Below, piece by piece: positions 8,606 through 23,200 of a stretch of 32,000 bases of DNA. The first letter of the stretch is position 1. Every line of letters starts with the position of its first letter. The DNA is from Tautonia marina (GTDB lineage Bacteria > Planctomycetota > Planctomycetia > Isosphaerales > Isosphaeraceae), in contig NZ_WEZF01000031.1 in the NCBI RefSeq assembly GCF_009177065.1, forward strand, positions 13,637-45,636. The letters are read 5' to 3'. A program made the position numbers and the translations under genes. The notes under the pieces were generated by a model that did not search any database, was not told the origin of the DNA, and saw only the letters and a program-made list of their open reading frames with translations.

Positions 8606-9277
8606 ATGAAACCATTCGACAACTACGAAATCTCCGGCTGCCAGCGCCTCGATGATGCTGGCACACCCGACCCGTATGGCAGCATCACCGTCACCTGCGA
8701 CGACGATGAGGCGGAATTCTGGACGCTCTACGGCCATGTCCAGGGCGAGCGCGTGGAAGCCCTCGGCGATTACTCCAGCCGCGAAGCGGCGGAAGAGGTG
8801 TACCAGTGCATCACCGGCCAGCCGTTCCCAAACCTCTATGAATGCGACCCACATATCCGCCGCATGCACCTTGCCGCCGAAGCGTTCGCGTTGCTGGAGC
8901 GTGCCGCCAGCGAACTCGAAATCTGGCAGCTCGGCTGCGGGCCGGAAGGCGATCCTGACACGCAGGCGATTCTCAGCGATGTACGGGCACTCTTCGCCAT
9001 GGCCGACGGCACCGGCGAAGCGGTGCCGCCATCGCCGCGGGAAATCGCGGTCAGCTGGGCTATCGAGGATGTGCAGGAAATCCGCCCGGATTTGAGCGAC
9101 GCTCAGGCGTGCCAGGTCCTGCAATGGGCGAAGCACCATCACGACGCGACCATCGGAATCAACCGGGAGGTGCTCGCCTGCCATGCCGAGCATCTCTTCG
9201 GCGATGCCCCGGCGGCGAACGGCGGAGCAGCGCCCGCATCCATCAACCTGAACACCATGGAGGAAACACAACCATGA
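8606..9277 (+). CDS. hypothetical acidic protein (223 aa)
   Basis: AAGGAG lies upstream, 5 nt after the previous stop. The product is MKPFDNYEISGCQRLDDAGTPDPYGSITVTCDDDEAEFWTLYGH.. Confidence 0.6.
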   Translation: MKPFDNYEISGCQRLDDAGTPDPYGSITVTCDDDEAEFWTLYGHVQGERVEALGDYSSREAAEEVYQCITGQPFPNLYECDPHIRRMHLAAEAFALLERAASELEIWQLGCGPEGDPDTQAILSDVRALFAMADGTGEAVPPSPREIAVSWAIEDVQEIRPDLSDAQACQVLQWAKHHHDATIGINREVLACHAEHLFGDAPAANGGAAPASINLNTMEETQP

Positions 9278-9474
9278 CCCAGCAATTTACCTACGAAATC
9301 ATGCTGAACGTGGAACGCGAAGGCTTGCTGACCATTCCCATCGCTGGTTTCCGCGTGCAGGGATGGCTCGACACCGACCGCGACTTCGCCGAACAACTTG
9401 AAGAGCGTATCGCGGAACATTTGAGGCGGATCGTACCGAAGCTGGAGAAGGCGCGGCCAGTTGCCCGGGAATAA
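9274..9474 (+). CDS. small hypothetical protein (66 aa)
   Basis: An internal ATG of ORF 9109-9474 overlaps the previous stop as ATGA (9274-9277). GGAGGA lies upstream. The product is MTQQFTYEIMLNVEREGLLTIPIAGFRVQGWLDTDRDF.. Confidence 0.5.
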   Translation: MTQQFTYEIMLNVEREGLLTIPIAGFRVQGWLDTDRDFAEQLEERIAEHLRRIVPKLEKARPVARE

Positions 9475-9489
9475 AGGCTCTCCGGAATC

Positions 9490-9984
9490 TCAGCCGTCTG
9501 CCTTCCGGAAGGTGATGCTCCGGATGACCGTGGCCGCATCGTCTTCCGCCGGCTGATTCGCCGGTTGCTCCCATACCCAGTAAATCGCCATCCGGCCGAG
9601 GGCCGCGCAGAGCGGAATAAGGTTCCGGCCCTCGATGACGGCTTCCGTCACTTCGCTGCCGCTGAACCGCACGATGAGCTTCGGGCCTGAGCCCGGCCGC
9701 TCGCCCTCGGCCATCCAGACCCGCTCCAGGCCGTGATAGAGGAAGCCGACCGGCAGCATGTTCTTCGGCAGGAAGAACAGGCAGGCCACCGGGCGGCTGG
9801 AAAGCCGCGAATACGCCCGGTAGGGATCGCCCGCCACCGGCAGCGGCGGATGGTCGTCGTTAACCGCCGGTGCCGCCTCCGGCGCTACCGGCTCCGGCCT
9901 TTCGGGCTCAGAGCGTGCCGCACCAGCTTTGCGGTCGATCATGTCGAGGATGCTGAATTTCTCTGCCATCCGCTCATCGGCCAT
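9490..9984 (-). CDS. hypothetical protein (164 aa) translationally coupled to the relaxase gene
   Basis: ATG at 9984 overlaps the relaxase 3' end (stop 9974-9976) by 11 nt. Composition is protein-like (..LFFLPKNMLPVGFLYHGLERVWMAEG..). No family recognised. Confidence 0.5.
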   Translation of the reverse strand: MADERMAEKFSILDMIDRKAGAARSEPERPEPVAPEAAPAVNDDHPPLPVAGDPYRAYSRLSSRPVACLFFLPKNMLPVGFLYHGLERVWMAEGERPGSGPKLIVRFSGSEVTEAVIEGRNLIPLCAALGRMAIYWVWEQPANQPAEDDAATVIRSITFRKADG

Positions 9985-12889
9985 GGCCGTGCTCCTGTTG
10001 CTGTGATCTCAGACGTTCGGCGTGCGTGAATCCTTCCGGCCGGTAGCCGCCCACAGGCGAACGGTCTGCCGGCGAAGCTTCCGTGCCGTTGCGGGAAAAC
10101 GCCCGGCTCCATGCCGCACGCATGGTGTCGAACAGGCGGAGCTTCCGCCTGCGGGCCAGATGCCGCTGCCGCCGCTCCTGCTCCTCCCTTGCCGGATCGG
10201 GCTTCGCCGCCGGCATCAAATCGAGGGCGAGCCGCTTCAGGCTCGATTTCTGGATACGCTCGCGCACCGCCTCCTTATCGTCGGTAAAGAGCGAAAGCTG
10301 CTGCTTCGCCCTGGTCGCGCTCACATACATCTGCTCCATGCTGGTCGCCGGCAGCGACATGGACGACATGCCGAGAATCACCCGCTTCACGGTGCGCCCT
10401 TGCGAGCCCATCGAGGTTTCGACGTAGCCGTGCCGCAGATGGCCGGCATCCCGGCTCACTTTCCAGCCGTTTTCAAGGACGATGTTGCCTTTGCGGTCGA
10501 ACCCGCTTACCACCTGCGTATCGCCGTTTTTGAGCCGGTGTTTGCCGTCCAGGCTCTTTACCGTGCCCGTAAACCGCACGACATCGCCGGTGCTTAAGGA
10601 AAGCGTCTCCGGCCGGTAGAGGCTGAACCGCTCCGCCTGTGACACCGGCACCGAGTTCGGATCGGTAACAACGAGCCGCTCGCCTTTACGGAAGCCTTTC
10701 GCGTTCTGGTGGAACTGAATCACATCGCCGGGCCGGTAGGTGCTGCTTTCCGAGCGTTCGGCCAGCGAGGTCATCACCGGCATCAGCCGAAGAACTTCCC
10801 GCTCTTCGGAGCCGAGCCGGCCCTTTTCCCGAAGCCGGCTGCGGATTTCGGCGGTCATCAGGTTTGCTTCCGCGTGGGTCGGCGCAACGGCGAGCACGCG
10901 GGCCTGCGGCGGCAGGTGTTCGAATTCTTCTGCAGCGGCCACGTATTCCTCTGCCATGCGCTGCACCCGCTCTTCGCCGTTTGCCATCTCATGCACCCAG
11001 CCGAGCCGGTCGAGCGCATCAAAGCCCTCCGCCGCCTTGCCCTCGTAGAGCAGCCCGGCCGCTTCCCGGTATTCCGGGCTTTCCTGACGGAGAATCTCCG
11101 TCAGCCGGAAGGGCCGGATATGCCCGTAGTCCTTCAGCAGCCGCATGAAGGCACCGCGGCCGATGGAGCCGTGTTGGCGCGGATCGCCAACAACGATGAG
11201 CTTCAGGTTCTGCCGCTTCACCACCTCCATCAGCTTCACGGCATCGGCGTGCGAGAGCATCGAGCTTTCATCGACGACGACGCGGCCGTTCTGTGCTGCC
11301 GCCTGCATCTTTTCGTCGAGCAGGAAGCGGGCGAGCGTGTCGGCTTCGAAGCCTTCCTGATTCAGCACCTTCACCGAGGTAGCCGTGGTGCCGAGCCAGG
11401 TGACGGCCTGGCCCTGAAGCGCTGCCCCTTCCGCAAATTTCTTCAGCAGCGACGATTTCCCGGCACCGGCCGGCCCCTCGATCAGGTTGACGCGGTTTTC
11501 GCTTGTAAGCAGGCCGGTCACCGCTTCCCACTGGCCGCGGTTCAGGTACTCGCGCTCAAGCCCCCCGGATACGCCAATCGGGGCCACCGCTCCCCTGCCG
11601 GCCATGGCCCAATCTGCCATTCCCCGCTCTTCGGCGAGCAGCTCTGGCGTGGTCGCCACCCGCTCGCCATCGCGCTCCACGAGGATGACGCCCTGCCGCT
11701 TCAGCTCCCGTTCGATGTCTTCCGGCGACGCCGCGCCTAAGCTCCGCTCCAGCGCCGTCGTCATCAGCGTCTCCGGCGGCAGGGTCGATTCCTGCTCGAA
11801 ATGGTGCCGCATCGCAAACGCCACCGCCCGCTCAGGCGTGTTTTCCGGGCGGCCGTTCTCGCCACGCATCGCCCGTTTGATGGTCTCGGCGATGGCCCGA
11901 CGCTCAGCCCCGGTTTGCCGGCTCCGCCAGTATTCGCGGCACTCTTCGAGCGTCAAATCATCACGCTTGGTCTGTCGCGAGGTTGCGGCGAGCCGGTCGC
12001 GGGCCACGGTGCTTAAGGAGTCCGGAGCGGTCGCATCCAGCTCCCTGTTCTCAGCGACGATGGCCGCTTCCGTCGCGTCGATATCCCGCGTGCGGCGGGA
12101 CGATTTCTCAAGCGCCGACTGCCAGTCCGGTTCGAACGACGGAGCCGGCCGGATGTCCCACGAGTAATAGCGGCTGCCGCCCTGTTCGCTGTTTTGCCAC
12201 TTCGTCTCAATCTCGTAGCCGAGGCCGCTCAGCTTCTTCGCAAGAATCGCATCGAAGCTCCGGTCGAAGAATTTCCGCAAATCCATCAGCGGCCGGAATT
12301 TCACCGCCTTCCAGCGGCCTTCGGCATCGTCGAAGGTCAGGTTGAGCACGACGCCGTGGATATGCCGGTCTTCATCCGGCATCACCCGCCATGGATGGTC
12401 TTCCGGCAGCGATTCATCGACAGTGGGGCGGGTTTCGGCATGCTCGACGGCGTAGGCCACCAGATTGCCGGTAATGCGGTCCTCGTGCTTTCCATCCACG
12501 CGCACCCGGGTTGTTGCGTATCCCTCCAGCATGGCGAGCGCCTCGCGGAAGGATTCCCATAAGGCTTCGTGCACGCGCACATCGCCGCCCTCGATGGCGT
12601 GCGTCACGCCTTTGGGCACGCTCGCGGTCACATCCCAGGCCGGGATACGGTTGTCGCGCAGACGGGCGGTAAGCTGCTCGCCCGTGAACGGGTCGAGCCC
12701 GTGCAGCATGTTGCGGAACTGGTCGAATTCCGGCGGGCCTTCAAGCCCGAGCATCGCGGCACCGCGGCCGGCCCATTCGGCGTGCAGGCCATGCTCGCCA
12801 TGGTAGTAGCCGCCGTCGCTCCGGGCGTAGTACAGCTCCGCCCGGCGTGCCGCCTCTTTACCCGTTCCGACCGGCTTCATTCGCAACAT
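9974..12889 (-). CDS. MOBF-family conjugative relaxase-helicase (TrwC/TraI-like)
   Basis: The N-terminus AELYYARSDGGYYHGEHGLHAEWAGRGAAMLGLEG is the typical TrwC-type relaxase opening. A histidine triad region ..DRHIHGVVLN.. is present. The P-loop helicase half has LIEGPAGAGKSSLL and VVVDESSM. The start is uncertain: ATG 12889 is chosen, but the ORF is open to TTG 12946 and there are other ATGs at 12925 and 12880. Confidence 0.85.
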   Translation of the reverse strand: MLRMKPVGTGKEAARRAELYYARSDGGYYHGEHGLHAEWAGRGAAMLGLEGPPEFDQFRNMLHGLDPFTGEQLTARLRDNRIPAWDVTASVPKGVTHAIEGGDVRVHEALWESFREALAMLEGYATTRVRVDGKHEDRITGNLVAYAVEHAETRPTVDESLPEDHPWRVMPDEDRHIHGVVLNLTFDDAEGRWKAVKFRPLMDLRKFFDRSFDAILAKKLSGLGYEIETKWQNSEQGGSRYYSWDIRPAPSFEPDWQSALEKSSRRTRDIDATEAAIVAENRELDATAPDSLSTVARDRLAATSRQTKRDDLTLEECREYWRSRQTGAERRAIAETIKRAMRGENGRPENTPERAVAFAMRHHFEQESTLPPETLMTTALERSLGAASPEDIERELKRQGVILVERDGERVATTPELLAEERGMADWAMAGRGAVAPIGVSGGLEREYLNRGQWEAVTGLLTSENRVNLIEGPAGAGKSSLLKKFAEGAALQGQAVTWLGTTATSVKVLNQEGFEADTLARFLLDEKMQAAAQNGRVVVDESSMLSHADAVKLMEVVKRQNLKLIVVGDPRQHGSIGRGAFMRLLKDYGHIRPFRLTEILRQESPEYREAAGLLYEGKAAEGFDALDRLGWVHEMANGEERVQRMAEEYVAAAEEFEHLPPQARVLAVAPTHAEANLMTAEIRSRLREKGRLGSEEREVLRLMPVMTSLAERSESSTYRPGDVIQFHQNAKGFRKGERLVVTDPNSVPVSQAERFSLYRPETLSLSTGDVVRFTGTVKSLDGKHRLKNGDTQVVSGFDRKGNIVLENGWKVSRDAGHLRHGYVETSMGSQGRTVKRVILGMSSMSLPATSMEQMYVSATRAKQQLSLFTDDKEAVRERIQKSSLKRLALDLMPAAKPDPAREEQERRQRHLARRRKLRLFDTMRAAWSRAFSRNGTEASPADRSPVGGYRPEGFTHAERLRSQQQEHGHGR

Positions 12890-12954
12890 GGGCGATGCCC
12901 CCGCCTTTACCAAATCCAGGGGCATCCTAACGGCGAAAACCACCAAATCAAGCA

Positions 12955-13150
12955 GTAGTTGTGTGAAAGTGCTTTCACCATGACCGTAGCAGTCTGATGC
13001 CCTAGCGGTAAACCTCTAGGAAAACCGCGGGGTTTTCACGGTGAAACCGCTTTCGCGGCGAGGGCAGCAGATGCACGTCTTAGTTGAATGACTGGTACAG
13101 TAACGGTTTAAGGACTGGGCATACCCGGAAGGGTAAACGCCGCTCCGGCG
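12955..13150. other. candidate oriT region (cluster of short palindromes immediately upstream of the relaxase gene)
   Basis: Palindromes read directly: GTGAAAG-TG-CTTTCAC (12963-12978); GAAAACC-GCGG-GGTTTTC (13020-13037); TTCAC-G-GTGAA (13035-13045); CCGC-TTTC-GCGG (13047-13058). Four GTGAAA-type half sites form two palindromic pairs about 70 bp apart. The region is non-coding and lies between the relaxase start and the next CDS. The nic site is not identified. Confidence 0.45.
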
Positions 13151-13187
13151 ATTGACCGGCCCTGAATACCGGAGTATCGCTTTAGGC

Positions 13188-13703
13188 ATGTTCGACGCAG
13201 CCAACGACAACGAAGACGAAGAAACCGGGCCTTCCCGGGCGCAGCCGCCGCTTTACGTGCTCCGCGTCCCGGAAACCTGCCCGAACTGCGGCTCCGCCAC
13301 CGGCGTCTGCACGCTCGCCGCTTCCGGCCTCTACGACGCCAGCGACGGCGATTTCTTCGACCGCTTCATCGTGCTCACCCATGCCGCGGAAGTGCCGGAG
13401 CAGCTGCTCGCGCTGCTGCGGGCCCGCTTCCCAAACTGGTATCCGGACCGCGAGGAGGGAAGCGGCACCGCCTATCTGATGAATCACTGCGAATGCGGCA
13501 GCCGGCTCACGGACGATGACATCCACGCCGAGCCCGGCGCGGCCTTTCACCCGACCAGCCCCGACGCATGCCGGAACATCTCGCTGTATCGCCTGCCCAT
13601 CGGCGAGGAGCTGCCGCTCGTCTGCAGCTGGACCATCGGCGTCGGCGAATGGCTCGACCCGGCCAGGGCGGCCGACTGGCAGGCAGGCGATGCAGGAGCT
13701 TGA
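13188..13703 (+). CDS. hypothetical protein with split zinc-ribbon-like cysteines (CPNC .. CEC)
   Basis: ATG 13188 lies within ORF 13152-13703, which opens with TTG. The product is MFDAANDNEDEETGPSRAQPPLYVLRVPETCPNCGSATGVC...MNHCECGSRL.. No family recognised. Confidence 0.45.
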   Translation: MFDAANDNEDEETGPSRAQPPLYVLRVPETCPNCGSATGVCTLAASGLYDASDGDFFDRFIVLTHAAEVPEQLLALLRARFPNWYPDREEGSGTAYLMNHCECGSRLTDDDIHAEPGAAFHPTSPDACRNISLYRLPIGEELPLVCSWTIGVGEWLDPARAADWQAGDAGA

Positions 13704-13899
13704 TTTCAGCGACTCGCAGCTTCCGCCGGAGGAACTCGCCGAATACCGCCGGCACTACCGCAGCGAAGAGCAGGATGAGCAGGCCCGCATCGACGCGAAG
13801 CTCGCCCGGGTAAAGCTTTGCATGGGCATGGAAGAGCATTTCCGGCCGGGGCTCAGCCTGAAGGCGATGCCGCTGCCGCTCCTCGTGCTTCGGGAATAA
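13690..13899 (+). CDS. small hypothetical protein (69 aa)
   Basis: An internal ATG of ORF 13516-13899 overlaps the previous gene by 14 nt. The product is MQELDFSDSQLPPEELAEYRRHYRSEEQDEQARIDAKLARV.. The SD is weak. Confidence 0.35.
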   Translation: MQELDFSDSQLPPEELAEYRRHYRSEEQDEQARIDAKLARVKLCMGMEEHFRPGLSLKAMPLPLLVLRE

Positions 13900-13952
13900 A
13901 CGACCAAACGACGGGAGGATACTGATTCAGCACCGCCTGAGGCGTCAAGAGC

Positions 13953-14459
13953 TTAGTCAACTACCTTAATGCCCTTTGGCCGCTTGATTTCTTCAGGTAG
14001 GTGATCCGCCGGAAGCACACGCTGATAGGAGCCAGTAGTCTGCACCATGACGCGCTGGCCTTTCTCCAGTACCTTGTCTTCGGAGTTTAGATTCTGGGCT
14101 ACCGTCATCGCTTTGCCCTGCTCAGTCACTACTGTGTACTCAATTCCCTTCGAGTCGGCCGCCGCTTGTTCTGCCGCTGCACCAATGATTGCCCCTGCAA
14201 GCGCTCCACCGGCAGCTGCCCAAATCTGCCCGCTGCCGTCACCAACGTAGGCACCGGCCCCACCTCCGGCTAGCGCACCTGCGGTAGCTCCTGCCCCGGT
14301 GTTGCGACCGGTGATATCGATTTCCCGAACATCGACGATGGTGCCGAAATCGACCAGCACCGACTGGCCAACCTCGTTATATCGGTACTGATTTTGACCC
14401 TGCTGCTTGGCACATCCGGCCAGTGAAATGGCAACCAAAAGTACTACAACGTAACGCAT
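13953..14459 (-). CDS. SlyB/PCP-like outer-membrane glycine-zipper lipoprotein
   Basis: Lipobox LVAISLAG|C. The architecture matches E. coli SlyB as I recall it: ..DFGTIVDVREIDITG.., then glycine zippers GAGATAGALAGGGAGAYVG and AAGGALAGAIIGAAA, then a beta-rich tail (GIEYTVV..GQRVMVQ). G+C appears by eye to be lower than the backbone (not hand-counted). Confidence 0.7.
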   Translation of the reverse strand: MRYVVVLLVAISLAGCAKQQGQNQYRYNEVGQSVLVDFGTIVDVREIDITGRNTGAGATAGALAGGGAGAYVGDGSGQIWAAAGGALAGAIIGAAAEQAAADSKGIEYTVVTEQGKAMTVAQNLNSEDKVLEKGQRVMVQTTGSYQRVLPADHLPEEIKRPKGIKVVD

Positions 14460-14468
14460 AATAAATCC

Positions 14469-15011
14469 TTACCTAATATCTGCTTCTGTTTTTCGGGCCA
14501 GCGACTGTGCGATATGGGCAATGTTTTCACCGAAAGCACCACCGGCTGCCTCATATATCACCATCGTCGAGTTCGCACCAAAGAGGGGATATTCCGACGT
14601 ATGCGGTACAACCACAAGCTCACGATAGACCGGATCGCCGGACTTCGCTTCGACCAGCGTATATTCCACGGCACAGCCTGTTTCGCAGCTTCCGAACATA
14701 CAGCTTGGCATCTGAAAATCTTTGATGTCACTCAGGAGATGATACTCAGCATCGCTGGCATTCTGGTTTAGTAGGCCCGCTGCGTTGAACCCACGCTGCA
14801 AGGCAAATGGGAGATTGTTGAAAAACGGGTCGTCTTCCTGCCATTCGAGGCTTCGGATCACGTCTCCTATCGCAAGTTTTCCTTTGAGATAATAATTTCC
14901 GTCAACCTGTTTGAAGGATTGCTCCCTCGGTTCCATCATATGAGCAGGGATGGGGTTATTAGTACAGGCCGCCAGGGCAAGCAAACAGAGGGGAATCAGT
15001 TTTTTCAGCAT
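14469..15011 (-). CDS. hypothetical lipoprotein (180 aa)
   Basis: Signal peptide plus lipobox MLKKLIPLCLLALAA|CTNN. It lies 9 nt upstream of the SlyB-like gene on the same strand. GGGAGA lies upstream of the ATG. Confidence 0.65.
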   Translation of the reverse strand: MLKKLIPLCLLALAACTNNPIPAHMMEPREQSFKQVDGNYYLKGKLAIGDVIRSLEWQEDDPFFNNLPFALQRGFNAAGLLNQNASDAEYHLLSDIKDFQMPSCMFGSCETGCAVEYTLVEAKSGDPVYRELVVVPHTSEYPLFGANSTMVIYEAAGGAFGENIAHIAQSLARKTEADIR

Positions 15012-15038
15012 CGCGTTCTCCCGACTTACATCCCGCCT

Positions 15039-15067
15039 AAGCTACATGCACTACTATTTATTGGCAA
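15039..15067 (-). promoter_or_regulatory. possible sigma70-type promoter for the lipoprotein pair
   Basis: The minus strand reads TTGCCA (15067-15062), a 17-nt spacer, then TAGCTT (15044-15039). It lies ~28 nt upstream of ATG 15011. Pattern match only. Confidence 0.25.
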
Positions 15068-15085
15068 CTTTTAATATTTCGGATT

Positions 15086-15613
15086 TCATCGACTAAGTTT
15101 CGACGTTCGAGCTGCCTGGCCGCAATGCGGCAGCATCCCGCAGGGCCGGCACTGCGCAGGCTTCGGAAATACCCTGGCTGGCGTAGCCAGATCCTGCCGT
15201 ATGGCCCTGATCTGCTCGGCCATGCCAAGTACCTGAGCCCGAAGTGCCTCCGTGTTCTCGATGCGGCATCGCGTGCCGTCGCCAAGGACGATGAAGCCGT
15301 GCGACGGCCGGCGGCCGAGCCGGTCCTCGATGAGCAGGAAATACACGCCCATCTGAGCCCTGTGCCAGGGCCGAAGCGTTCGGGCGGATTTCCATTCCTC
15401 GGGGATGACGCTATCGCCCTGCCGGACAATCCGGTCGGGCCGGCCGGTGAGCCCGAGCCGCTTCGAAGTGAGCGTCACCTGGTCGAGCGAAACCGTGCGG
15501 CCTGCCTCAAGCCCGGCTTTCTGCCGCAGCCCTCTGCCGGCCCGCACCAGCAGAAGCCCAATACCGAGCAGGCAGAGGGCAAGCAGAAGCCCGAGCCAGA
15601 GGGGAAAGCTCAT
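15086..15613 (-). CDS. membrane-anchored Cas4/RecB-like PD-(D/E)XK nuclease, C-terminal piece (catalytic core + CX2CX5C)
   Basis: N-terminal TM helix (SFPLWLGLLLALCLLGIGLLLV). Then GLTGRPDRIV..VIPEEWKS (D..ExK), QMGVYFLLIE (QxxxY), and a C-terminal CRPCGMLPHC cysteine cluster. ATG 15613 overlaps the upstream stop as ATGA. A GTG at 15619 is also possible. Confidence 0.7.
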   Translation of the reverse strand: MSFPLWLGLLLALCLLGIGLLLVRAGRGLRQKAGLEAGRTVSLDQVTLTSKRLGLTGRPDRIVRQGDSVIPEEWKSARTLRPWHRAQMGVYFLLIEDRLGRRPSHGFIVLGDGTRCRIENTEALRAQVLGMAEQIRAIRQDLATPARVFPKPAQCRPCGMLPHCGQAARTSKLSR

Positions 15614-15867
15614 CGCCACAATGTCCAGAGCAGCACCAGGGCCGCCAGCAGCAGGGCACAGCCAGCCAGCACCCAGCCCAGGCCGATCGACGAGCCGGCG
15701 ACCGCCTCGACGGCGGCCTTCCGCTTATGGTACCGGGTTCCGGCCTGCATCTCCCGCCGGTTCGCCGGCGGAAGCCTCAGGCCCTCTTGCAGACGCCATT
15801 GCTCCGGGCAGTAGGCGAAGCTGGCGATTTCATGGGCAGAGATTAATTCTGTCACAACTTCCGCCAC
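15610..15867 (-). CDS. small membrane protein carrying the Cas4-type N-terminal cysteine motif (N-terminal piece of a split Cas4-like nuclease)
   Basis: GTG start, 3 nt after the PIN-like stop. ISAHEIASFAYCPEQWRL..MQAGTRYH resembles the Cas4/DUF83 N-terminus (first Fe-S cysteine plus the G..H motif). A TM helix follows (IGLGWVLAGCALLLAALVLLWTLW). Confidence 0.55.
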   Translation of the reverse strand: MAEVVTELISAHEIASFAYCPEQWRLQEGLRLPPANRREMQAGTRYHKRKAAVEAVAGSSIGLGWVLAGCALLLAALVLLWTLWR

Positions 15868-15870
15868 TGT

Positions 15871-16905
15871 TTAAGTGTAAAGCTCATCCCATTCATCACC
15901 CAAAATCCAGCGAATTGCGGAGAGCTTTCCATTTATCATTCCCCATTCAAAATTATCCCAAGGACCGAGGTTTTCCAATCCGTATTTCGCTTCCAATTTT
16001 CGAGCTGACTCCAATGCCCCTTCCCAAATATCACGTTGAATCGGCCGCTCTTTACCAGCGATTGAAGGGAATGTTTCTCTTTCAACAAGTTCAATTTCAC
16101 CTGATTCTATTTTTTCTCGACGAACCATATGACGATTATACCAGACTTTATCGCATAGCTCGCCCTCGGCTTCGATTAGCTCAGAAAGCGATCGTTGCGG
16201 CTGCTCCCACTCGCCCAGTTCCGCCATTAGCTCAGAAACTAGATCAGGCCGCACCATACGCAATGCGTCGCCAATGTTAATAAAGTAATTTGAATTTCTC
16301 TTGGAAAAGAATTCCGCGATGTCAGGGTGAGCTTCATTGTTGTTGACTGATGTATTACTAAAATCGTTGTGATTGTTGGTCACAAAGGCAAATCGATGCC
16401 CAGCCGACTCCTGCCCTTGAACGCATTCACCATAGATTTCGATGATAACGGCATCGCCGGTGCTGTTCTTTTTGCCGTGGAATGGAGCTTTGACCTGCAA
16501 CGCTCGGTCAATAACACGAGACTTCACCGGCTCGCTTACTTCTAAAATGGCCGCAGTTTTGAATAGTTTTTCAATTCTCGTCATCGATTCGGCGACGGCA
16601 TCCCCTAGCGTCGGAAGCCGGTGGTCAATGTCGTTGAGTTGCTCCAGCACCTCTCTCTTTGAGCTTGCATCGCCGTACTTGTCCACAGCGTCTTTCACCC
16701 GCTTGAACACGCTGGAGAGGCTTTTCCGGCTGTCATCGATGATCCGCTGGCGGTTTCTCTGAAATTCATCGATGACAACGGCAGGCAGAAGGATTCCGAC
16801 TTCTTGCCGTTTCACAAGCTCCTCCAGAACGCTCAGCAATAGCTGTTGCTGAGGCTCCTTCGCCATGTTCAGCCAGACATCAGTATCTGCCATGATTTTG
16901 AACAT
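15871..16905 (-). CDS. PIN-like domain protein (344 aa) with uncharacterised C-terminal half
   Basis: ATG 16905 lies 2 nt after the MmeI-like stop. The longer ORF to 17007 would overlap that gene. The spacing of acidic and polar residues fits a PIN-like fold: IMADTDVWLN .. VVIDEFQRN .. STGDAVIIEIY .. FAFVTNNHNDF. G+C is low (line 16081-16140 hand count 19/60). Confidence 0.6.
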   Translation of the reverse strand: MFKIMADTDVWLNMAKEPQQQLLLSVLEELVKRQEVGILLPAVVIDEFQRNRQRIIDDSRKSLSSVFKRVKDAVDKYGDASSKREVLEQLNDIDHRLPTLGDAVAESMTRIEKLFKTAAILEVSEPVKSRVIDRALQVKAPFHGKKNSTGDAVIIEIYGECVQGQESAGHRFAFVTNNHNDFSNTSVNNNEAHPDIAEFFSKRNSNYFINIGDALRMVRPDLVSELMAELGEWEQPQRSLSELIEAEGELCDKVWYNRHMVRREKIESGEIELVERETFPSIAGKERPIQRDIWEGALESARKLEAKYGLENLGPWDNFEWGMINGKLSAIRWILGDEWDELYT

Positions 16906-16907
16906 TA

Positions 16908-19754
16908 TCAGCTCACATTCACGCAGTCTTCGGTGATGAACGCCGCCGCATCCTTGACCGAAGGCGGAAGCCCCGGCCCGACCACCGGCCGCATGCTCTC
17001 CTCGCAATCGGCCAGCTCAGCATTCAGGCTGAGCAGGAAGGCAAGCGGATCGTCCTTGGCTTTCATGCCGTAGGCAGCACGGACAGCGCCATCAAGTTTG
17101 TCTTGTGCTGCTGTCAGCGGGTTACGACCGGGCACGTCGAGGGTCCGATACAGCTCCCGGAGGCTCCAGCCGTTCTCTTCCATAAGGCGGCTCCGAAGCT
17201 GGCGCAGTGCGACGGAAGCAGCGGCCACCTGCTTTACCTGCGTGAGCGAGGGGGATTGGGGCCATGGGAATGTATCAAATACGGTATCCGAAGTGTATCG
17301 GAAATCGCCCTTCAGCGTAGAACACCGGGCAACAAACCACGCCCAATGGATGTTCGACTGAAGAATTCCGAATGAATAATCGTCCGCCAGAGAAAACACC
17401 TGCAAGGCATCGTTCGGGTGTATCCTCGCGTCGATGAATGAAAATATCGGACGCTTGGTCACCCTGGCGCACCCTATGTAACGCGGAAGAGTCGCCAGGC
17501 GATCAATCATCTCGGGGCGGCCTCTCCAGTATTTCCACCAACGCTGATAATGGTTTTGTCGCGGCCCTTTATCTTTGCCTGTCGCCTCCCGCTCTTTCTC
17601 GGCATTCTCTTTCATAGTCGGCATGACGTATGTTCTGACGTGCTCAAACGCTTTGCCATGCTTCATTGCGCCAATCAGGTCATCGCAATGGTTAAGATCG
17701 ATGGCATAGCGGGAGGGTGCCCCATGCGTCAGAAGATCATCGCCAGTCAGGTAAGGATGGATGACATTCTTCGAGGCAGGGTCTTTCGTTAGCTCCTTCG
17801 CTGCTTCCTCCGTCAGCAGGAACCCTTCGTTTCCGTGCGTCTGCCCCTGATAACATGCTCCGGAGTCAATGTTGGCTTGCAGCCTTTCAGCCTGCGTTAC
17901 ATCATGCGACGCGGAAAGAGCCGGTCCAATCCGGTCAACCTCGACCACTTCCCACGGGCTGTCTCTGTTATCGCCAATCTGCGTAAAGAGCTTCTTTTTC
18001 CCCTCAGCATCGCCCTTCACCCAATTTGCTATGGACACATGAACGACAGCATCGCCCGACCATACCTGACTTGAGACAGCCTCAGTAATCGTTCCGCCAT
18101 GGCCGACGATGTAATCGAGCCCCCCCTCTCGCGAATAGTTTTGCCGGATGGTATTGGTGCCGACCAGGCCGGCGTGCCCGCCCTTCGGCAGCTCGTCATG
18201 CGCCCGGCGAAACCAATAGACGCAGTAATCTGCCCGGCCCGGCACCTCAGGATAACGATCGCGCACCTTTTCTACATATTCGTGGCCGTACTCCTGCTGC
18301 ATTTTGTTTTTCGACTGATAGGGCGGATTCCCGACGATGGCCTGGGCTTTCGGCCATTTGCAGAACAGTGCGTCCTCGCAGATGATGTTTGCGTCGAGGT
18401 TGTCGAGCGGCAGGGCCGCATCGAATTCGATCGGCAGGTCGAGCTGTTCAGAGTCGATCCACGAACGGCTTTCGTCGATGGCCAGCTCCTTGGCGAGCAT
18501 AAGCGTCACCTTGGCCAGCTCGACGCCGAAGGCGTCTTTCTCGATGCCGAAGAATTGCTTTGTACTCACCTGCGTGCGGGTGCCCACCGCCTGCTGAGCC
18601 CGGCGGCCGAACTCGGCATGAATCTTCGCCATCAGGCTCAGTTCCAGCCGAATCAGCTCCCGGTAGGCGACGTAGAGGAAATTTCCGCTGCCGCAGGCCG
18701 GATCGAGCACCCGGAAATCCCGCAGCTCTTCGAGTAGCTGCCGCAGGTCCTTCAGCGTCTTCGTGCTCTCGATGCGCTCCCGCCACGGCCGCACGATAGT
18801 CGGCAGCACAACCTTCTGGATGTCGGCTTCCGAGGTGAAATGCGCCCCGAAGGCGTGCCGGGCCTGCTTGTCCATGCTGCTCTGGAACAGCGTGCCGAAG
18901 ATGGGCGGCTGCACTTTGCTCCAGTTTTCTTCAGCCGCCGACTGGAGCAGGGTGATTTCGTCGTTCACCAGCTCGACCGGCTCGACCACCTGAAAGATGC
19001 CGCCGTTGAAGTAGCGGACGTTTTTGAACTTGCCGCCCCGGGCCGGCTCAGGGTTGTTCATCTGCCGGAACAGGCCCCCGATCAGGTCGTAGCTGCTCTC
19101 GCCGCCGAAGCAGTCGGCGAGCAGCTCGCTGAAGAGCCCGCGTGGCAGAAGCTCGGCATCCTCCGAGAACATGGCGACCACGCATTGCAGGGCGAAGCGC
19201 TGGGCCCGCGCCCGCGCCTCGCCACGGCCGACCATCGAGTTAAAGACGCGTGCCACCTTGTCAGCGGCCGCCCGCGTGACATCGACGCGGTTGTTGCCGA
19301 ATTGCGGCTTCCGGTCCTCGGGAAACAGGAAGTTGAGCGCCGTGTAGCGGTGCGGCAGCTCTTCGAGGGCAATCCGGTCTACCGGGTCGTTGAGCTGGGA
19401 ATCGAAATCGTAGATCCAGAATTCGTCGAAGTTGCAGAGGATGACGTAGCGGGGCCGCTGGGGCACCAGCTCCAGCCAGTATTCGAACGCCTGCGTGTAG
19501 TGCTGCTGGAGCTTCTCGCCGCGTTTCTTCATCTCCATCAGCAGCCGCGGCCGCCAGAGCAGGTCGGCGAATTTCGTGCTCTTGCCCCGGGCCTTGACGC
19601 GGAATTCGAGGGTGGCTCCGGCTTCCTTGTATCCGCCGTGTCCGAACGCCTGAAACAGCCGGTCGCAGAAGACCTGGGCCTCGCCTTTCTCATCGCCCCT
19701 CAGGGTGCGGGCATAATCGACGAAGGTGCGAATCGGCTCGACGGTCGTGCTCAT
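16908..19754 (-). CDS. MmeI-family type IIL restriction-modification enzyme (nuclease + gamma-class N6-adenine MTase + TRD in one chain)
   Basis: Collinear with MmeI as I recall it. N-terminal nuclease motif FADLLWRPRLLMEMKKRG (D..ExK). Also RYVILCNFDEFWIY, IFGTLFQSSMD, GAHFTSEADI, SAM motif VLDPACGSGNFL, FFGIEKDAFGVELAKV, catalytic IVGNPPYQ, LVGTNTIRQ, and YTSDTVFDTFPWP near the C-terminus. Confidence 0.85.
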   Translation of the reverse strand: MSTTVEPIRTFVDYARTLRGDEKGEAQVFCDRLFQAFGHGGYKEAGATLEFRVKARGKSTKFADLLWRPRLLMEMKKRGEKLQQHYTQAFEYWLELVPQRPRYVILCNFDEFWIYDFDSQLNDPVDRIALEELPHRYTALNFLFPEDRKPQFGNNRVDVTRAAADKVARVFNSMVGRGEARARAQRFALQCVVAMFSEDAELLPRGLFSELLADCFGGESSYDLIGGLFRQMNNPEPARGGKFKNVRYFNGGIFQVVEPVELVNDEITLLQSAAEENWSKVQPPIFGTLFQSSMDKQARHAFGAHFTSEADIQKVVLPTIVRPWRERIESTKTLKDLRQLLEELRDFRVLDPACGSGNFLYVAYRELIRLELSLMAKIHAEFGRRAQQAVGTRTQVSTKQFFGIEKDAFGVELAKVTLMLAKELAIDESRSWIDSEQLDLPIEFDAALPLDNLDANIICEDALFCKWPKAQAIVGNPPYQSKNKMQQEYGHEYVEKVRDRYPEVPGRADYCVYWFRRAHDELPKGGHAGLVGTNTIRQNYSREGGLDYIVGHGGTITEAVSSQVWSGDAVVHVSIANWVKGDAEGKKKLFTQIGDNRDSPWEVVEVDRIGPALSASHDVTQAERLQANIDSGACYQGQTHGNEGFLLTEEAAKELTKDPASKNVIHPYLTGDDLLTHGAPSRYAIDLNHCDDLIGAMKHGKAFEHVRTYVMPTMKENAEKEREATGKDKGPRQNHYQRWWKYWRGRPEMIDRLATLPRYIGCARVTKRPIFSFIDARIHPNDALQVFSLADDYSFGILQSNIHWAWFVARCSTLKGDFRYTSDTVFDTFPWPQSPSLTQVKQVAAASVALRQLRSRLMEENGWSLRELYRTLDVPGRNPLTAAQDKLDGAVRAAYGMKAKDDPLAFLLSLNAELADCEESMRPVVGPGLPPSVKDAAAFITEDCVNVS

Positions 19755-20017
19755 GGGCGGTATCGGTTCAGGCTAACGGGCATAGAATTCATCGCGGCAG
19801 CGTACAAAGCAGGCCCGGGGTTCGCTGCCAAACCCCTGAGCAGACAGGATTTGCGATGATACCGCCGGATTCTCCCGCGGTCAAACCATGCGTGGATCGT
19901 AAGCCACAATGCCTGCCCTCCGGGATTCTCCCGGCATGAGCCTGCATCGTAACTCCGGCAGTATTGGCAATTTAGACCGGCTGTGTTAATCTGAAGGCAG
20001 GTTAGAGGACCATTGCC

Positions 20018-20338
20018 ATGAATGTTCATATTACTGAAAACTCGGAAAACATCATCCGCTCCAAAGTGCAGAGCGGCCGCTATTCGTCCGCCGAGGAGGT
20101 GATCGAGCGAGCCTTGCGGCTGCTTGAGGAGCAGGACAAGGCATCATCGCCTGAGAGCGGAGCACCGCTCACGGAAGACCAGAAGGCCAGCCTCGATGCC
20201 CAGCGCCGCCTGAAGGAAGCAGGATTGCTGAGCGAAATCCGGCTCCCCATTACCGATCTCACGCCCTACGCCAGCCGGAGAGCCGTCCCCATCCAGGGCG
20301 AGCCCCTCTCCGAAACCGTCATCCGCGAGCGCCGCTGA
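20018..20338 (+). CDS. type II antitoxin (ParD/RHH-like N-terminus) paired with VapC
   Basis: MNVHITENSENIIRSKVQSGRYSSAEEVIERALRLLEE resembles the ParD-family antitoxin N-terminus. The C-terminal ..PIQGEPLSETVIRERR tail is typical of antitoxins upstream of PIN toxins. The stop lies 1 nt before the toxin GTG. Confidence 0.7.
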   Translation: MNVHITENSENIIRSKVQSGRYSSAEEVIERALRLLEEQDKASSPESGAPLTEDQKASLDAQRRLKEAGLLSEIRLPITDLTPYASRRAVPIQGEPLSETVIRERR

Positions 20339-20339
20339 C

Positions 20340-20789
20340 GTGGCTTTCTACTTTCTGGACACCAGTGCTCTGGTCAAACGATACGTTCAGGAAACAGGAA
20401 CTGCATGGTTGCAGTCATTTTGCCAGCCTGCGGCAGGCCATACGCTGTTTCTGGCCCGCATCACGCTCGCTGAGATGGTCGCCGCGATCACGCGACGGGA
20501 ACGGGGCGGAAGCATCGCCCCTGCGGATGCCGCTATGGCTCTGGCTGATTTCCAGCTCGACTTCGCCCGGCAATACCTGCCAATGGAAATCACCGCCGCC
20601 CTGATCGTGCAGGCCGCACAGCTTGCCCGAACCCATGGCCTGCGCGGCTACGACGCCGTACAGCTGGCGGCTGCCCTCGAGGTTCACGCCCGAGTGCCGA
20701 CGCTTACGCTAATCTCTGCCGATCAGGAACTCAACGCAGCCGCCACCGCATCAGGCATGTCTGTGGATGACCCGACCATGTATCCCTGA
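20340..20789 (+). CDS. vapC: PIN-domain toxin, VapC family
   Basis: GTG start. (M)AFYFLDTSALVKRYVQE.. carries the first acidic residue. Also ..ITLAEMVAAI.., ..LRGYDAVQLAAAL.., ..LISADQELNAAA.. The spacing is typical of a 149-aa VapC. Confidence 0.8.
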   Translation: MAFYFLDTSALVKRYVQETGTAWLQSFCQPAAGHTLFLARITLAEMVAAITRRERGGSIAPADAAMALADFQLDFARQYLPMEITAALIVQAAQLARTHGLRGYDAVQLAAALEVHARVPTLTLISADQELNAAATASGMSVDDPTMYP

Positions 20790-20795
20790 CAGAGT

Positions 20796-21287
20796 CTACT
20801 TCCCCGCGGCCTTCGCGGCTGCTTCAACCCATCCACCAAAGCCCAGGAAGCCATTGTCGGCAACCCACCGATACGTCGGAAATAATTGCGACATAGGAAC
20901 AAGAATGCTTCCCTGCTTGACCTTGATGTGATCGAAGGGATTCTGGCCTTGGTAATCTGTGCGGCCGTCCTGACCCTTAATTTCATGAACGTAGATACCG
21001 AACAGGCCGTTTCCACGTTCGTAGCTCTTCTCGATCTCGTACTTTACCCAGGGCCGTTGCCATGTCTCATAGCCAATGAGAACGGCGGTGACGGAAGTAC
21101 CAACGAGCCCGTCGTCGATCATCCTTTTGATAGCCGTATCGCCTTTCTTTTTGGCCTCCTCCCAGAGCGACCTGTCCCAATAGCCTCGGTTCTCGATGTC
21201 GGCTTTCGACTTACCGTGGTTCCGGACGATACTGGCACGCCAGATGTCACGGTCGTAGTGAAAGCTGAAGAATACTTTTCTGGCCAT
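20796..21287 (-). CDS. thsB: Thoeris ThsB, TIR-like (DUF1863-type) protein
   Basis: MARKVFFSFHYDRDIWRASIVRNH..SLWEEAKKKGDTAIKRMIDDGL..TSVTAVLIGYETWQRPWVKYEIEKS..YRWVADNGF aligns along its length with Bacillus cereus MSX-D12 ThsB as I recall it. AGGAGG lies upstream. It is immediately downstream of thsA. Confidence 0.85.
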   Translation of the reverse strand: MARKVFFSFHYDRDIWRASIVRNHGKSKADIENRGYWDRSLWEEAKKKGDTAIKRMIDDGLVGTSVTAVLIGYETWQRPWVKYEIEKSYERGNGLFGIYVHEIKGQDGRTDYQGQNPFDHIKVKQGSILVPMSQLFPTYRWVADNGFLGFGGWVEAAAKAAGK

Positions 21288-21316
21288 GAAGGGCCCTCCT
21301 GATGAAGTTCCGGACG

Positions 21317-22759: not shown

Positions 22760-22792
22760 ACTTTAAATCCCGTGCACTCATAGCGATTCTAT

Positions 22793-23152: not shown

Positions 23153-23200
23153 GGTCGGGTTCCCTCCCCTGCCCGGCAGCACGGCACCCCCTTCTCCTTT

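Follow-up and report, generated by a model that had tools for sequence, protein, structure and literature searches.

A Cas4-family nuclease predicted to be split into two membrane-anchored subunits encoded by overlapping genes in Planctomycetota

Cas4 proteins that are solo or borne on MGEs are widespread, and their roles are poorly understood. Both classes were defined by Hudaiberdiev et al. in 2017 (PMC5704561), in a Cas4 phylogenomics paper in which the words "transmembrane" and "split" do not occur. A full-text search of the literature retrieved no report of a split or membrane Cas4. In the "iron-staple" of AddB and Dna2, one cysteine before and three cysteines after the PD-(D/E)XK core hold a [4Fe-4S] cluster, which staples the domain. 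That DNA-targeting defence can draw its specificity from localisation at the membrane is established, as in SNIPE, Zorya, and Kiwa, where location serves as the filter between self and non-self (PMC12904381). A Cas4-like nuclease has also been found to limit RSF1010 in Synechococcus (PMC10653904).

The gene pair described here lies in a window of 32,000 nt, the whole stretch of DNA that was analysed. An earlier note had read in it a Cas4-like Fe-S nuclease divided over two ORFs, and both ORFs and their motifs were found on the minus strand as described, with matching coordinates (Table 1). ORF translation revealed that the N piece (N subunit) carries FAYCPEQW and AGTRYH, followed by a hydrophobic helix at its C-terminal end, and that the C piece (C subunit) carries, in this order, an N-terminal hydrophobic helix, GRPDRIV, EEWKS, QMGVY, and CRPCGMLPHC. 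At the junction, the C-piece ATG (15613-15611) shares bases with the N-piece TGA (15612-15610), which together read ATGA. Both ORFs of the window copy are intact, and the junction is canonical. Database annotation gives the N subunit as "hypothetical" and the C subunit as Cas4 or "PD-(D/E)XK nuclease".

Table 1. Coordinates of the gene pair, its predicted functional elements, and the neighbouring transfer features in the window (aa, amino acids; conservation is given as pairs out of 34 intact N+C pairs).
Feature	Position	Strand	Remark
N piece gene, N subunit	15610..15867	-	85 aa, GTG start
C piece gene, C subunit	15086..15613 (from ATG)	-	175 aa
ATGA stop/start overlap	15610..15613	-	window sequence
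Cys20 codon, N subunit, predicted first [4Fe-4S] ligand (AYCPEQW)	15808..15810	-	Cys in 34/34 pairs
His47 codon, N subunit (AGTRYH), predicted metal ligand in trans	15727..15729	-	34/34 pairs
Predicted TM helix, N subunit, about residues 61-84	15616..15687	-	about 1-7 residues after helix
Predicted TM helix, C subunit, about residues 3-23	15545..15607	-	K/R-rich RAGRGLRQK next
D..ExK core, C subunit: D60 (GRPDR), E72, E73, W74, K75	15389..15436	-	
QxxxY motif, C subunit: Q87-M-G-V-Y91	15341..15355	-	Q 34/34, Y 33/34
C155-x2-C158-x5-C164 (CRPCGMLPHC), C subunit, predicted three other Fe-S ligands	15122..15151	-	
TrwC/MobF relaxase-helicase gene	9974..12946	-	Pfam TrwC 1.1e-52, AAA_30 1e-45
Invariant 14-mer AGGGCATCAGACTG in conserved inverted-repeat block, putative oriT	12990..13003	-	

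Profile searches placed the C piece in Pfam Cas_Cas4 (PF01930; E=5.9e-9, 36.6 bits, cut-off 22.7), and gave it 51.9 bits against TIGR00372 (cas4; E=7.6e-14), under the cut-off of 65. The N piece matched TIGR00372 (15.3 bits) and PDDEXK_1 (18.5 bits, cut-off 22) weakly, and by itself falls under every curated cut-off of Pfam and TIGR00372. On the TIGR00372 profile, the two pieces fall next to each other without overlap, at positions 5-44 (N piece) and 57-178 (C piece) of 180. When the two were spliced in silico, with the predicted transmembrane (TM) hairpin deleted, the product gave one continuous match over positions 5-178 with a score of 66.3 bits, above the cut-off that neither chain reaches separately. 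The placement in the Cas4 / PD-(D/E)XK superfamily put forward in the earlier note holds by these two measures, the C piece exceeding the PF01930 cut-off and the splice that of TIGR00372. These comparisons support the assignment of both pieces to the Cas4 / PD-(D/E)XK family, in which they would together constitute one complete nuclease. In PADLOC-DB 2.0, the C piece matched models of Cas4 and of Cas4-Cas1 fusions (Cas1b, Cas1g), and weakly DruK (PD-(D/E)XK), and the N piece matched Cas4 models alone; no defence-system model beyond this Cas4 and DruK similarity was found there for the pair.

A PDB sequence search gave marginal Cas4 matches and nothing better, and a fold search was needed. The AF2 model of the concatenated pieces, built with shallow alignment information for the N piece, showed a Cas4 / RecB-like fold with a core pLDDT above 90, and low confidence in residues 1-30 (pLDDT 39-62) and in the cysteine tail (53-59). 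The best PDB matches returned by Foldseek were 8d3q, 7mi5, 7mi4, and 8d3l (Cas4), 5eax (Dna2), and 4ic1, with E-values from 8e-7 to 6e-4. The Cas4 matches are the Cas4 chains of type I-C and I-G Cas4-Cas1-Cas2 complexes. ACE1, MGME1, and SSO0001 were also among the fold matches, and the match to AddAB was weak (E=0.015).

Residue conservation was counted over 34 intact N+C pairs. In the N piece, Cys20 falls in the stretch that aligns with the N-terminus of Cas4 (TIGR00372), and Glu22, Trp24, and Gly43 are invariant (34/34). In SSO0001, the residue His62, upstream of the D..ExK core, ligates the metal (PMC13621843), and His47 of the N piece may, by analogy, be its equivalent. In the C piece, Asp60, Glu72, Glu73, and Lys75 are each present in all 34 pairs, and the D..ExK segment was aligned with the D/E/K region of SSO0001. 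The QxxxY motif and the cysteine motif of the C piece were aligned with the QxxxY and the C-terminal cysteine motif, respectively, of the type I-C Cas4 (PDB 8D3L); Cys155 and Cys164 are found in 34/34 pairs, and Cys158 in 33/34. All four Cas4-type cysteines are present in the sequence, Cys20 in the N piece and Cys155, Cys158, and Cys164 in the C piece. Since one cysteine and the histidine lie on the N piece, and the D..ExK core, the QxxxY motif, and three cysteines on the C piece, both the cluster and the active site are predicted to be inter-subunit. The earlier claim that the predicted Fe-S ligands are distributed over two chains is borne out across the relatives, with each of the four retained in 33 or 34 of the 34 pairs. 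The pair is predicted, from its sequence, to form a heterodimer, to bind an Fe-S cluster, and to act as a nuclease.

Both helices are strongly hydrophobic throughout the 34 pairs. The best 19-aa Kyte-Doolittle window of the N-subunit helix has a mean of 2.61 and a minimum of 1.96, and the C-subunit helix a mean of 2.64 and a minimum of 2.12. Gly64 of the N subunit and Gly19 of the C subunit, within the two helices, are conserved. The segment predicted to lie outside the membrane comprises 6-14 residues. The K/R charge averages 3.9 in the 12 residues after the C-subunit helix, compared with 1.0 in the short outside segment, a positive-inside bias, and the predicted topology of the C subunit is N-out, C-in. 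In the AF2 model, a continuous helix spans residues 34-85 of the N subunit (pLDDT 75-81), and a second helix, contributed by the C subunit, spans residues 90-117 of the concatenate (pLDDT 85-88); the concatenate was folded as a helical hairpin (pLDDT 75-88). Insertion of both chains into the membrane is predicted. The break was originally placed exactly between two TM helices, and the wider set of pairs agrees, with hydrophobic windows of at least 1.96 in 34/34 pairs and the cut at the hairpin turn.

The split was followed in a census of 52 non-redundant assessable loci. In 49 of these, stop and start overlap and the C piece is read in the -1 frame, and the three exceptions are indel-ridden contigs. 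A 4-nt overlap was found in 43 loci (40 ATGA, 3 GTGA), and other geometries in six (four ATGGAGCTGA, one TGATG, and one without an assigned start codon). At every locus with an intact upstream end on the contig, the C piece is immediately preceded by an N-piece homologue. In three independent loci, an N-piece gene precedes the C piece and overlaps it by 4 nt, and eight further loci with junction sequences show the conserved split. An exhaustive profile search with the N piece yielded 377 cluster representatives, and nearly all of the best 150 of the 377 are 65-130 aa long. The longer ones were inspected and rejected as single chains, being read-throughs, mis-called starts, or the permuted C-N chimera P0165, and no genuine single chain was found among the best 150. 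Nearly all of the best 120 C-piece matches listed are 147-189 aa long, mostly 166-176, and the N-terminal helix is present in the ten homologues of 168-176 aa that were inspected.

Four "fused" proteins of 252-259 aa (P0003-P0006) were considered as unsplit forms and rejected, because their N pieces contain 1-nt indels. When their contigs, which bear metaFlye-style names, were translated in three frames, an ATGA could be read in another frame in three, and TGA/ATG in the fourth. One of these contigs (L011) has indels in both the N and C pieces and many fragmented genes. The earlier note had asked whether homologues are all single ORFs; the opposite was found, and the apparent single chains are indel artefacts. 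For annotation, this means that the "fused" database versions are artefacts of assembly.

The dN/dS ratio is ~0.28 for both soluble parts (34 intact pairs). The split is conserved under purifying selection and is not a product of decay; the two-gene arrangement that had been preferred over decay is upheld by the overlapping stop and start in 49/52 loci together with this ratio. An ancestral 1-nt frameshift may well be the origin of the split, in which case it is ancient and was fixed by purifying selection. Truncated copies of the pair are numerous in metagenomes, so the pair appears to be dispensable and often lost. Such truncated and indel-bearing copies, and the position of the isolated N piece below the curated cut-offs, are what could be cited for reading the window copy as a decaying or frameshifted single-chain Cas4 pseudogene, or for regarding the C piece alone as functional and the N ORF as an unrelated membrane protein. 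We consider either version extremely improbable. The window copy is intact and 49/52 relatives share its arrangement, selection acts on both pieces at the ratio given above, Cys20, Glu22, Trp24, Gly43, and His47 are invariant, and neither the C-piece nor the N-piece search produced a genuine single-chain relative among the best matches listed. An unrelated N ORF is further at odds with its alignment to just that part of the Cas4 profile that is absent from the C piece.

Overlaps of the ATGA and GTGA type are a classic signature of termination-reinitiation, and the C subunit would be made by this mechanism at the overlap, so that the N and C chains would be synthesised together; the stop/start coupling thus likely favours co-synthesis. 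A Shine-Dalgarno-like motif was found in 1/34 pairs, and the junction occurs as CGATGA, CTATGA, CCATGA, GGTGA, or ATGGAGCTGA. The split might also be a recoding signal, from which one polypeptide with an internal TM hairpin is produced by programmed -1 frameshifting or stop-codon bypass. This would suit the -1 offset of the C piece from the N piece, which is invariable and is what a -1 frameshift would require, and the folding of the concatenate as a continuous hairpin by AF2. However, the junction sequence is not constant across loci, the overlaps are those typical of termination-reinitiation, and the C pieces have their own start codon at the overlap (1/49 is without an assigned start). A slippery heptamer (X XXY YYZ) was found in 0/34 pairs over the final 21 N-piece codons, and on this absence programmed frameshifting was rejected. 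Recoding is in our judgement very improbable.

The reading that we favour, with moderate confidence, is that of a permanently split, membrane-tethered Cas4-family nuclease with an inter-subunit cluster and active site, whose role is most likely location-restricted defence or exclusion. The pair would form the two subunits of a [4Fe-4S] PD-(D/E)XK nuclease on the inner face of the cytoplasmic membrane, with the two helices pairing as a hairpin-like dimer, few residues outside the membrane, and the soluble parts in the cytoplasm. Cluster and metal site alike would be assembled across the subunit interface, and neither chain would therefore be expected to be active alone. With lower confidence, DNA ends may be trimmed or degraded at the membrane, the site of foreign DNA entry, and the carrying plasmid or integrative element may be the beneficiary of such a defence or exclusion nuclease. 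Tethering to the membrane would keep the nuclease off resident DNA. The biological role, defence or exclusion as against early establishment, is one that we can only infer.

The genomic context is that of mobile elements. All named hosts are Planctomycetota, mostly Isosphaeraceae, and since the contig scan used a single protein query and gave 5 loci, this taxonomic range rests on few named genomes. The pair is carried by the planctomycete plasmids pSINAC03 and PALBO2 and by integrative elements, and some copies are chromosomal, beside RND efflux or sugar-metabolism genes. In pSINAC03, a plasmid of Singulisphaera acidiphila, its two proteins are WP_015250768 and WP_015250769. The window encodes a relaxase, RepA with iterons, a resolvase, an MmeI-type RM enzyme, a PIN_12 protein, Thoeris, and VapC, and the neighbourhoods of relatives contain RM, TA, helicase, and integrase genes. 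Integrases or relaxases occur at many loci; an all-against-all flank comparison found no conserved partner gene, with relaxases and integrases recurring in a minority of loci. No CRISPR-like array is present in the window, and no cas family besides the C piece was found among 26 window ORFs scanned against Pfam (~20 likely genes, most long ORFs included), in agreement with the earlier statement that this is not a CRISPR adaptation module. Cas domains were likewise absent among the called genes with Pfam matches in ten context loci, and from the plasmid annotations. A megablast search of PLSDB with window positions 9000-24000 (15 kb around the pair) gave no match. A phage origin was rejected, as no relative was found in the IMG/VR viral contigs and one weak PHROG match was obtained.

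A relaxase gene lies downstream of the pair on the same strand in the window, and a same-strand MobF/TrwC relaxase gene follows 0.3-6.7 kb downstream in 8 independent loci. The 14-mer AGGGCATCAGACTG is 44 nt upstream of the window relaxase gene (chance expectation in the window 0.01), and the block that contains it was found upstream of the relaxase genes in the loci examined, namely the window, pSINAC03, and two further loci (L041 and L035). As the block is just upstream of the relaxase in these four loci, it separates the pair from the relaxase; in L035, the distance from the C piece to the block is ~215 nt. On its conservation, the inverted-repeat block, at about 12950-13060 of the window, is a putative oriT. 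In this frequent arrangement, with the pair just across the putative oriT from a relaxase gene and transcribed toward it, a leading-region gene for establishment or anti-defence is no less plausible than a defence gene.

The same two-subunit nuclease could thus have a role in plasmid establishment or anti-defence, as a leading-region pair expressed early from the T-strand in the recipient, where it would either process entering DNA at the membrane or destroy DNA intermediates of the host or of competitors, for instance the substrates on which host adaptation or repair acts. The relaxase downstream at 8 independent loci and the interposed block in four of them favour this role, as do the DNA methyltransferase and TA genes that neighbour the pair in pSINAC03 and PALBO2, such genes being typical leading-region cargo. 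Relaxase genes are normally the last to enter, and the T-strand is the template of leading-region genes (bioRxiv 10.1101/2023.02.15.528439); the orientation of the pair agrees with that of leading-region genes. Set against this, the oriT is putative and was deduced solely from conservation, a relaxase lies nearby (within 5-8 kb) in just ~8/29 locus groups while other copies are chromosomal, and the same region of the window has defence genes, a complete MmeI-type RM enzyme and Thoeris. Nor is any anti-defence protein known to be a membrane-anchored nuclease. We regard an establishment role as rather unlikely.

It is also possible, though doubtful, that the split itself is functional, and that the pair represents an undescribed plasmid-borne nuclease whose cluster and metal site span two single-pass subunits and whose cleavage is confined to the membrane surface at which conjugative or phage DNA comes in. 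Activity could then be gated by subunit assembly, by cluster or redox state, or by the state of the membrane, and the pair could serve conjugative elements of Planctomycetota as a minimal two-gene device for entry exclusion, defence, or establishment. As far as we have found, it would be the first Cas4/iron-staple nuclease with an Fe-S cluster and an active site bridging two polypeptides and, if so, a natural split-enzyme design with TM helices as the dimerisation device. The predicted, obligatory membrane tethering of this clade is an unusually explicit clue to function, so that a role where DNA enters can be tested. Through the pair, an oriT and a leading region, both putative, come into view on MOBF plasmids of Isosphaeraceae, elements that are not known to have been studied.

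Comparison with known systems places the pair closest to Cas4 (COG1468/PF01930/TIGR00372), with which it shares the order of motifs, an N-terminal Cys, His, D..ExK, QxxxY, and C-x2-C-x5-C. Canonical Cas4 is a single soluble polypeptide, whereas the pair consists of two genes, each encoding a TM helix; a hairpin of ~50 residues is inserted between profile positions 44 and 57 and cut at its turn, a membrane anchor is predicted on each chain, and cluster and active site are predicted to be inter-subunit. CRISPR-associated Cas4 adjoins cas1/cas2 or an array, and the pair in the window does not; like solo- and MGE-Cas4, it resides on mobile elements, apart from cas1, cas2, and CRISPR arrays. AddB and Dna2 have the same PD-(D/E)XK core with the 1+3 cysteine pattern, but their staple is a domain of a large, soluble, single-chain helicase-nuclease, whereas that of the pair would join two small membrane proteins. 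The Argonaute-associated ACE1 and other accessory Cas4-like nucleases use a Cas4 fold on invading DNA, outside of CRISPR adaptation; these are soluble single chains beside a partner (pAgo), in contrast to the pair, which has no conserved partner gene. SNIPE, Zorya ZorAB-CD, and Kiwa KwaAB offer a functional analogy, in which an inner-membrane nuclease or DNA binder meets the entering DNA (PMC12904381), and no sequence relationship to the pair was detected in PADLOC-DB 2.0. These systems rely on distinct sensor or motor proteins or on a DUF4041 domain, whereas in the pair, the nuclease itself is split, and the two helices are its sole extra parts.

Two overlapping genes, encoding an upstream 85-aa product (the N piece) and a downstream 175-aa product (the C piece), jointly specify one complete, predicted Cas4-type nuclease, because the two products cover adjacent parts of the same profiles, their splice is matched over its full length, and the modelled fold is Cas4-like. 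An earlier note, made from sequence alone, had described a two-chain, membrane-anchored Cas4-like protein; its account of both ORFs and of the ATGA junction was accurate (the same coordinates, motifs, and hydrophobic stretches were found), and its placement of the proteins in the Cas4/PD-(D/E)XK superfamily was borne out by HMM searches. The N piece, whose start lies just 3-4 nt past the stop codon of the upstream PIN_12 gene, carries EIASFAYCPEQWRL and AGTRYH, followed by a hydrophobic stretch that ends in WR-stop. The C piece starts with MSFPLWLGLLLALCLLGIGLLLV, followed in order by RAGRGLRQK, GRPDRIV, EEWKS, QMGVY, and CRPCGMLPHC. At the junction, the C-piece ATG (15613-15611) overlaps the N-piece TGA (15612-15610).

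Features of the Tautonia marina window (window coordinates)
Feature	Position	Strand	Remarks
HTH-Dam protein	4885-5793	plus	HTH domain fused to Dam-type N6-adenine methyltransferase domain
TrwC/MobF relaxase	9974-12946	minus	
Conserved non-coding block	12950-13060	minus	inverted repeat TTTTCACCGTGAAAA, second repeat GTGAAAGCACTTTCAC
Invariant core of block	12990-13003	minus	AGGGCATCAGACTG; chance expectation 0.01
Two predicted lipoproteins	13953-15011	minus	directly downstream of the pair
C piece	15086-15613	minus	175 aa counted from ATG
N piece	15610-15867	minus	85 aa, GTG start
PIN_12 protein	15871-17007	minus	378 aa; between MmeI-type enzyme and N piece
MmeI-type IIG RM enzyme	16908-19754	minus	948 aa; PADLOC REase_MTase_IIG, 1429 bits
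VapC-type PIN	20340-20789		adjoins Thoeris pair
Thoeris ThsB	20796-21287	minus	TIR protein
Thoeris ThsA	21317-22759	minus	SIR2 and STALD/SLOG domains
Resolvase	23110-23931		adjoins Thoeris pair
Iterons	29289-29389		22-bp repeat CTACCGTAATCTGAGGGTGGAA, four and a half copies; just upstream of RepA gene
RepA (RPA)	29556-31028		Replication initiator protein A (PF10134) homologue

The C piece scored 36.6 bits against Pfam Cas_Cas4 (cut-off 22.7), also matched PDDEXK_1 and several PADLOC Cas4 models, and aligned to positions 57-178 of 180 in TIGR00372 cas4 (E=7.6e-14). Matches of the N piece were weak, and fell consistently at the first ~40 positions of the models matched by the C piece (2-43 of PDDEXK_1, and 5-44 of both PADLOC Cas4 and TIGR00372). 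When the two hydrophobic helices were deleted in silico and the soluble parts joined, the product gave a single unbroken match to TIGR00372 (positions 5-178 of 180; 66.3 bits, equivalog cut-off 65). The AlphaFold2 model of the concatenate (mean pLDDT 75, core >90, with low confidence in the N-terminal segment of 30 residues and in the Cys tail) contains a pair of long helices (residues 34-85 and 90-117, pLDDT 75-88) that run antiparallel, and in the nuclease as a whole a hairpin of ~50 residues intervenes between the Cys/His segment at the N-terminus and the catalytic core. The best PDB neighbours of the model were the Cas4 subunits of the I-C and I-G Cas4-Cas1-Cas2 complexes, Dna2, ACE1, MGME1, SSO0001, and Pcal_0546.

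Searching with the concatenate recovered 499 relatives; of the top 120, almost all were 147-189 aa long (mostly 166-176) and corresponded to the C piece alone, and each of ten that were read (168-176 aa) has its own N-terminal hydrophobic helix. In each of three unrelated contexts, the C-piece gene is directly preceded by a small gene that ends 4 nt inside it and whose product is clearly homologous to the N piece (AYCPEQWRL..AGTRHH.. and a hydrophobic tail). An exhaustive search of 1.84 billion representatives, using a profile built from seven N pieces, yielded 377 proteins with an E-value no greater than 0.001, of which 125 reached 1e-10 or better. Almost all of the top 150 are 65-130 aa long, with the alignment extending to the protein C-terminus; the longer ones among them were rejected as single chains, being read-throughs, mis-called starts or a chimera.

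A metagenome scan gave 76 further loci, and a census was taken of the 52 non-redundant loci that allowed the end of the N piece and the start of the C piece to be assessed. The overlap is ATGA at 40 of the 52, GTGA at three, a 10-nt ATGGAGCTGA overlap at four, TGATG at one, and of another geometry, without an assignable start codon, at one (L069); the three exceptions all lie on indel-ridden contigs, and everywhere else (49/52) the C piece lies in frame -1 with respect to the N piece. For the soluble parts of both pieces, dN/dS was ~0.28 across 34 intact pairs, a value that is only approximate because dS is close to saturation (pS ~0.6). N-piece residues C20, E22, W24, G43, and H47, and C-piece residues D60, E72, E73, K75, Q87, C155, and C164, are conserved in all 34 pairs, and C158 and Y91 of the C piece in 33. 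The shared geometry, the dN/dS, and the key residues conserved on both chains argue that the split is ancestral to the family and kept by selection. The copy in the window is intact and typical of the family. Pseudogene decay, which the earlier note had set against a genuine two-gene arrangement, and which would be expected if homologues were all single ORFs, is contradicted by this common arrangement and by purifying selection on both chains; homologues are split at 49 of the 52 assessable loci, and the apparent single chains are indel products.

Four database proteins of 252-259 aa (P0003-P0006) were likewise rejected as single chains; they are false single-chain 'Cas4' entries, because their DNA carries 1-nt indels inside the N piece (at locus L011, inside the C piece as well). 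The stop/start overlap is readable in another frame at all four fused loci, as ATGA in three and TGA/ATG in L013. These loci (L011-L014) belong to ENA assemblies ERZ25039480, ERZ25073693, ERZ25039482, and ERZ25039587, whose contigs bear names of the kind given by long-read assemblers and have many 1-nt indels that split or merge genes; many genes of L011 are fragmented, among them those for TrwC and the T4SS coupling protein. L011 (5212-5526) also contains, some 0.5 kb upstream of its main pair, a degenerate N-piece copy with an internal indel, followed by a mere C-piece stub (MSLGCGIPG..), which looks like the remnant of a tandem duplication. Many metagenomic C-piece genes are cut short at a small set of recurring positions, on contigs independent of one another, ending in ..ELSCRVPSA-stop (L054, L062) or ..EEWKSSS-stop (L083-L088), or beginning at ..GRPDR (L061, L064-L068), a pattern that points to repeated site-specific insertion or recombination inside the gene.

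Two strongly hydrophobic 19-residue windows (mean Kyte-Doolittle 2.6, minimum 1.96) were found in every one of the 34 pairs. The helix is followed by 1-7 residues in the N piece and preceded by 0-8 in the C piece, giving a predicted outside portion of 6-14 residues in total; Lys and Arg average 3.9 in the 12 residues after the C-piece helix, compared with 1.0 in the outside segment. From these features, both soluble parts are predicted to be cytoplasmic (N piece N-in with a tail anchor; C piece N-out, C-in), and the topology would be that of a hairpin cut at its turn. Recoding into one chain is contradicted by the absence of a -1 slippery heptamer before the junction in all 34 pairs. Since an SD-like motif is also present in only one of them, termination-reinitiation coupling would be the simplest reading of C-piece translation, and would favour co-synthesis of both chains.

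The catalytic metal ligands of SSO0001 are His62, Asp99, Glu113, and the Lys115 backbone (PMC13621843). Judged by position, N-piece H47 is the likely equivalent of His62, so that cluster and metal site would both be shared between chains. At the level of sequence, the full Cas4 catalytic and cysteine inventory is spread over two chains that are conserved, encoded together, and each provided with a hydrophobic helix. The chains may pair via these helices at the cytoplasmic membrane face, where a shared [4Fe-4S] cluster would staple the N piece to the C piece, a composite metal site would form across both, and the pair would work as a Cas4-like nuclease, attacking DNA ends near the membrane. P0165, a 220-aa protein of the representative library, is a permuted chimera that joins a C piece without the cysteine tail to an N piece with serine in place of the cluster cysteine (VFSPEQW), and P0236 also lacks the N-piece cysteine; given these two, the cluster may have been lost in some divergent members.

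The window is plasmid-like, and its 22-bp repeats and RepA gene look like an iteron-type plasmid origin. Orphan methylases of the HTH-Dam kind are typical plasmid anti-restriction cargo. The GC content of 47-58% across the MmeI-type/PIN_12 stretch (15871-19754), compared with ~60% in the pair, suggests that the island was assembled as a mosaic. One of the two predicted lipoproteins downstream, of 168 aa, contains a glycine-zipper domain and weakly resembles the TraT surface-exclusion protein, below threshold (E=0.008); all-against-all comparisons of flanking ORFs gave no match for either lipoprotein at any other locus.

Named relatives are all from Planctomycetota, a range based on a handful of genomes, and occur on plasmids pSINAC03 of Singulisphaera acidiphila and PALBO2 of Paludisphaera borealis, in Tautonia sp., and in Isosphaeraceae and Planctomycetales MAGs; a truncated copy adjoins IS701 on plasmid pPL62-2 of Planctomyces sp. 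SH-PL62. The family is sizeable, with hundreds of clusters at 90% identity and, for the N piece, 377 representatives at 50%, and so far seems restricted to Planctomycetota and to metagenomes from peat, soil, and freshwater. The N piece is annotated as 'hypothetical protein' and the C piece as 'PD-(D/E)XK nuclease family protein' (RefSeq) or 'Cas4' (JGI). The pair is carried on mobile elements, without cas genes among the ORFs and plasmid annotations scanned; no relative was found on the viral contigs searched. Flank comparisons revealed no conserved neighbour across loci, the kinds seen being RM enzymes, methylases, TA modules, helicases, integrases, and relaxases. A large S8-family peptidase gene, perhaps another defence-island component, adjoins the pair in two otherwise unrelated loci (L003 4040-7487, accompanied by an AAA ATPase, and L092 5805-8360).

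The preferred role, of lower confidence, is that of a nuclease attacking phage or competing conjugative DNA on entry, with membrane tethering that would spare resident DNA; the likeness to SNIPE, Zorya, and Kiwa is one of logic, not ancestry (PMC12904381). The main rival, also of lower confidence, would make the pair a leading-region factor of the plasmid that is expressed early and serves establishment or anti-defence. In eight independent loci the pair is followed on the same strand, 0.3-6.7 kb downstream, by a MobF relaxase gene, and the conserved block stands directly upstream of the relaxase gene in all four loci examined (the window, pSINAC03, L041, and L035). This block is the probable oriT, with the nic region, of an Isosphaeraceae MOBF plasmid family, which would place the pair across the oriT from the relaxase, transcribed toward it. 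Leading-region genes are the first to reach the recipient, where early expression is possible (bioRxiv 10.1101/2023.02.15.528439), and the placement and direction of the pair would fit such geometry, with both the putative oriT and the transfer polarity deduced from conservation.

A full-text literature search found no split, bipartite or membrane Cas4, the words 'transmembrane' and 'split' are absent from the main Cas4 phylogenomic survey (PMC5704561), and NCBIfam, Pfam, and PADLOC hold no dedicated model for either chain. By motifs and fold, the pair is of the same kind as solo and MGE-borne Cas4s, but it departs from every described Cas4 in being encoded by two genes, in the predicted membrane anchoring of both chains, and in the predicted division of cluster and active site between them.
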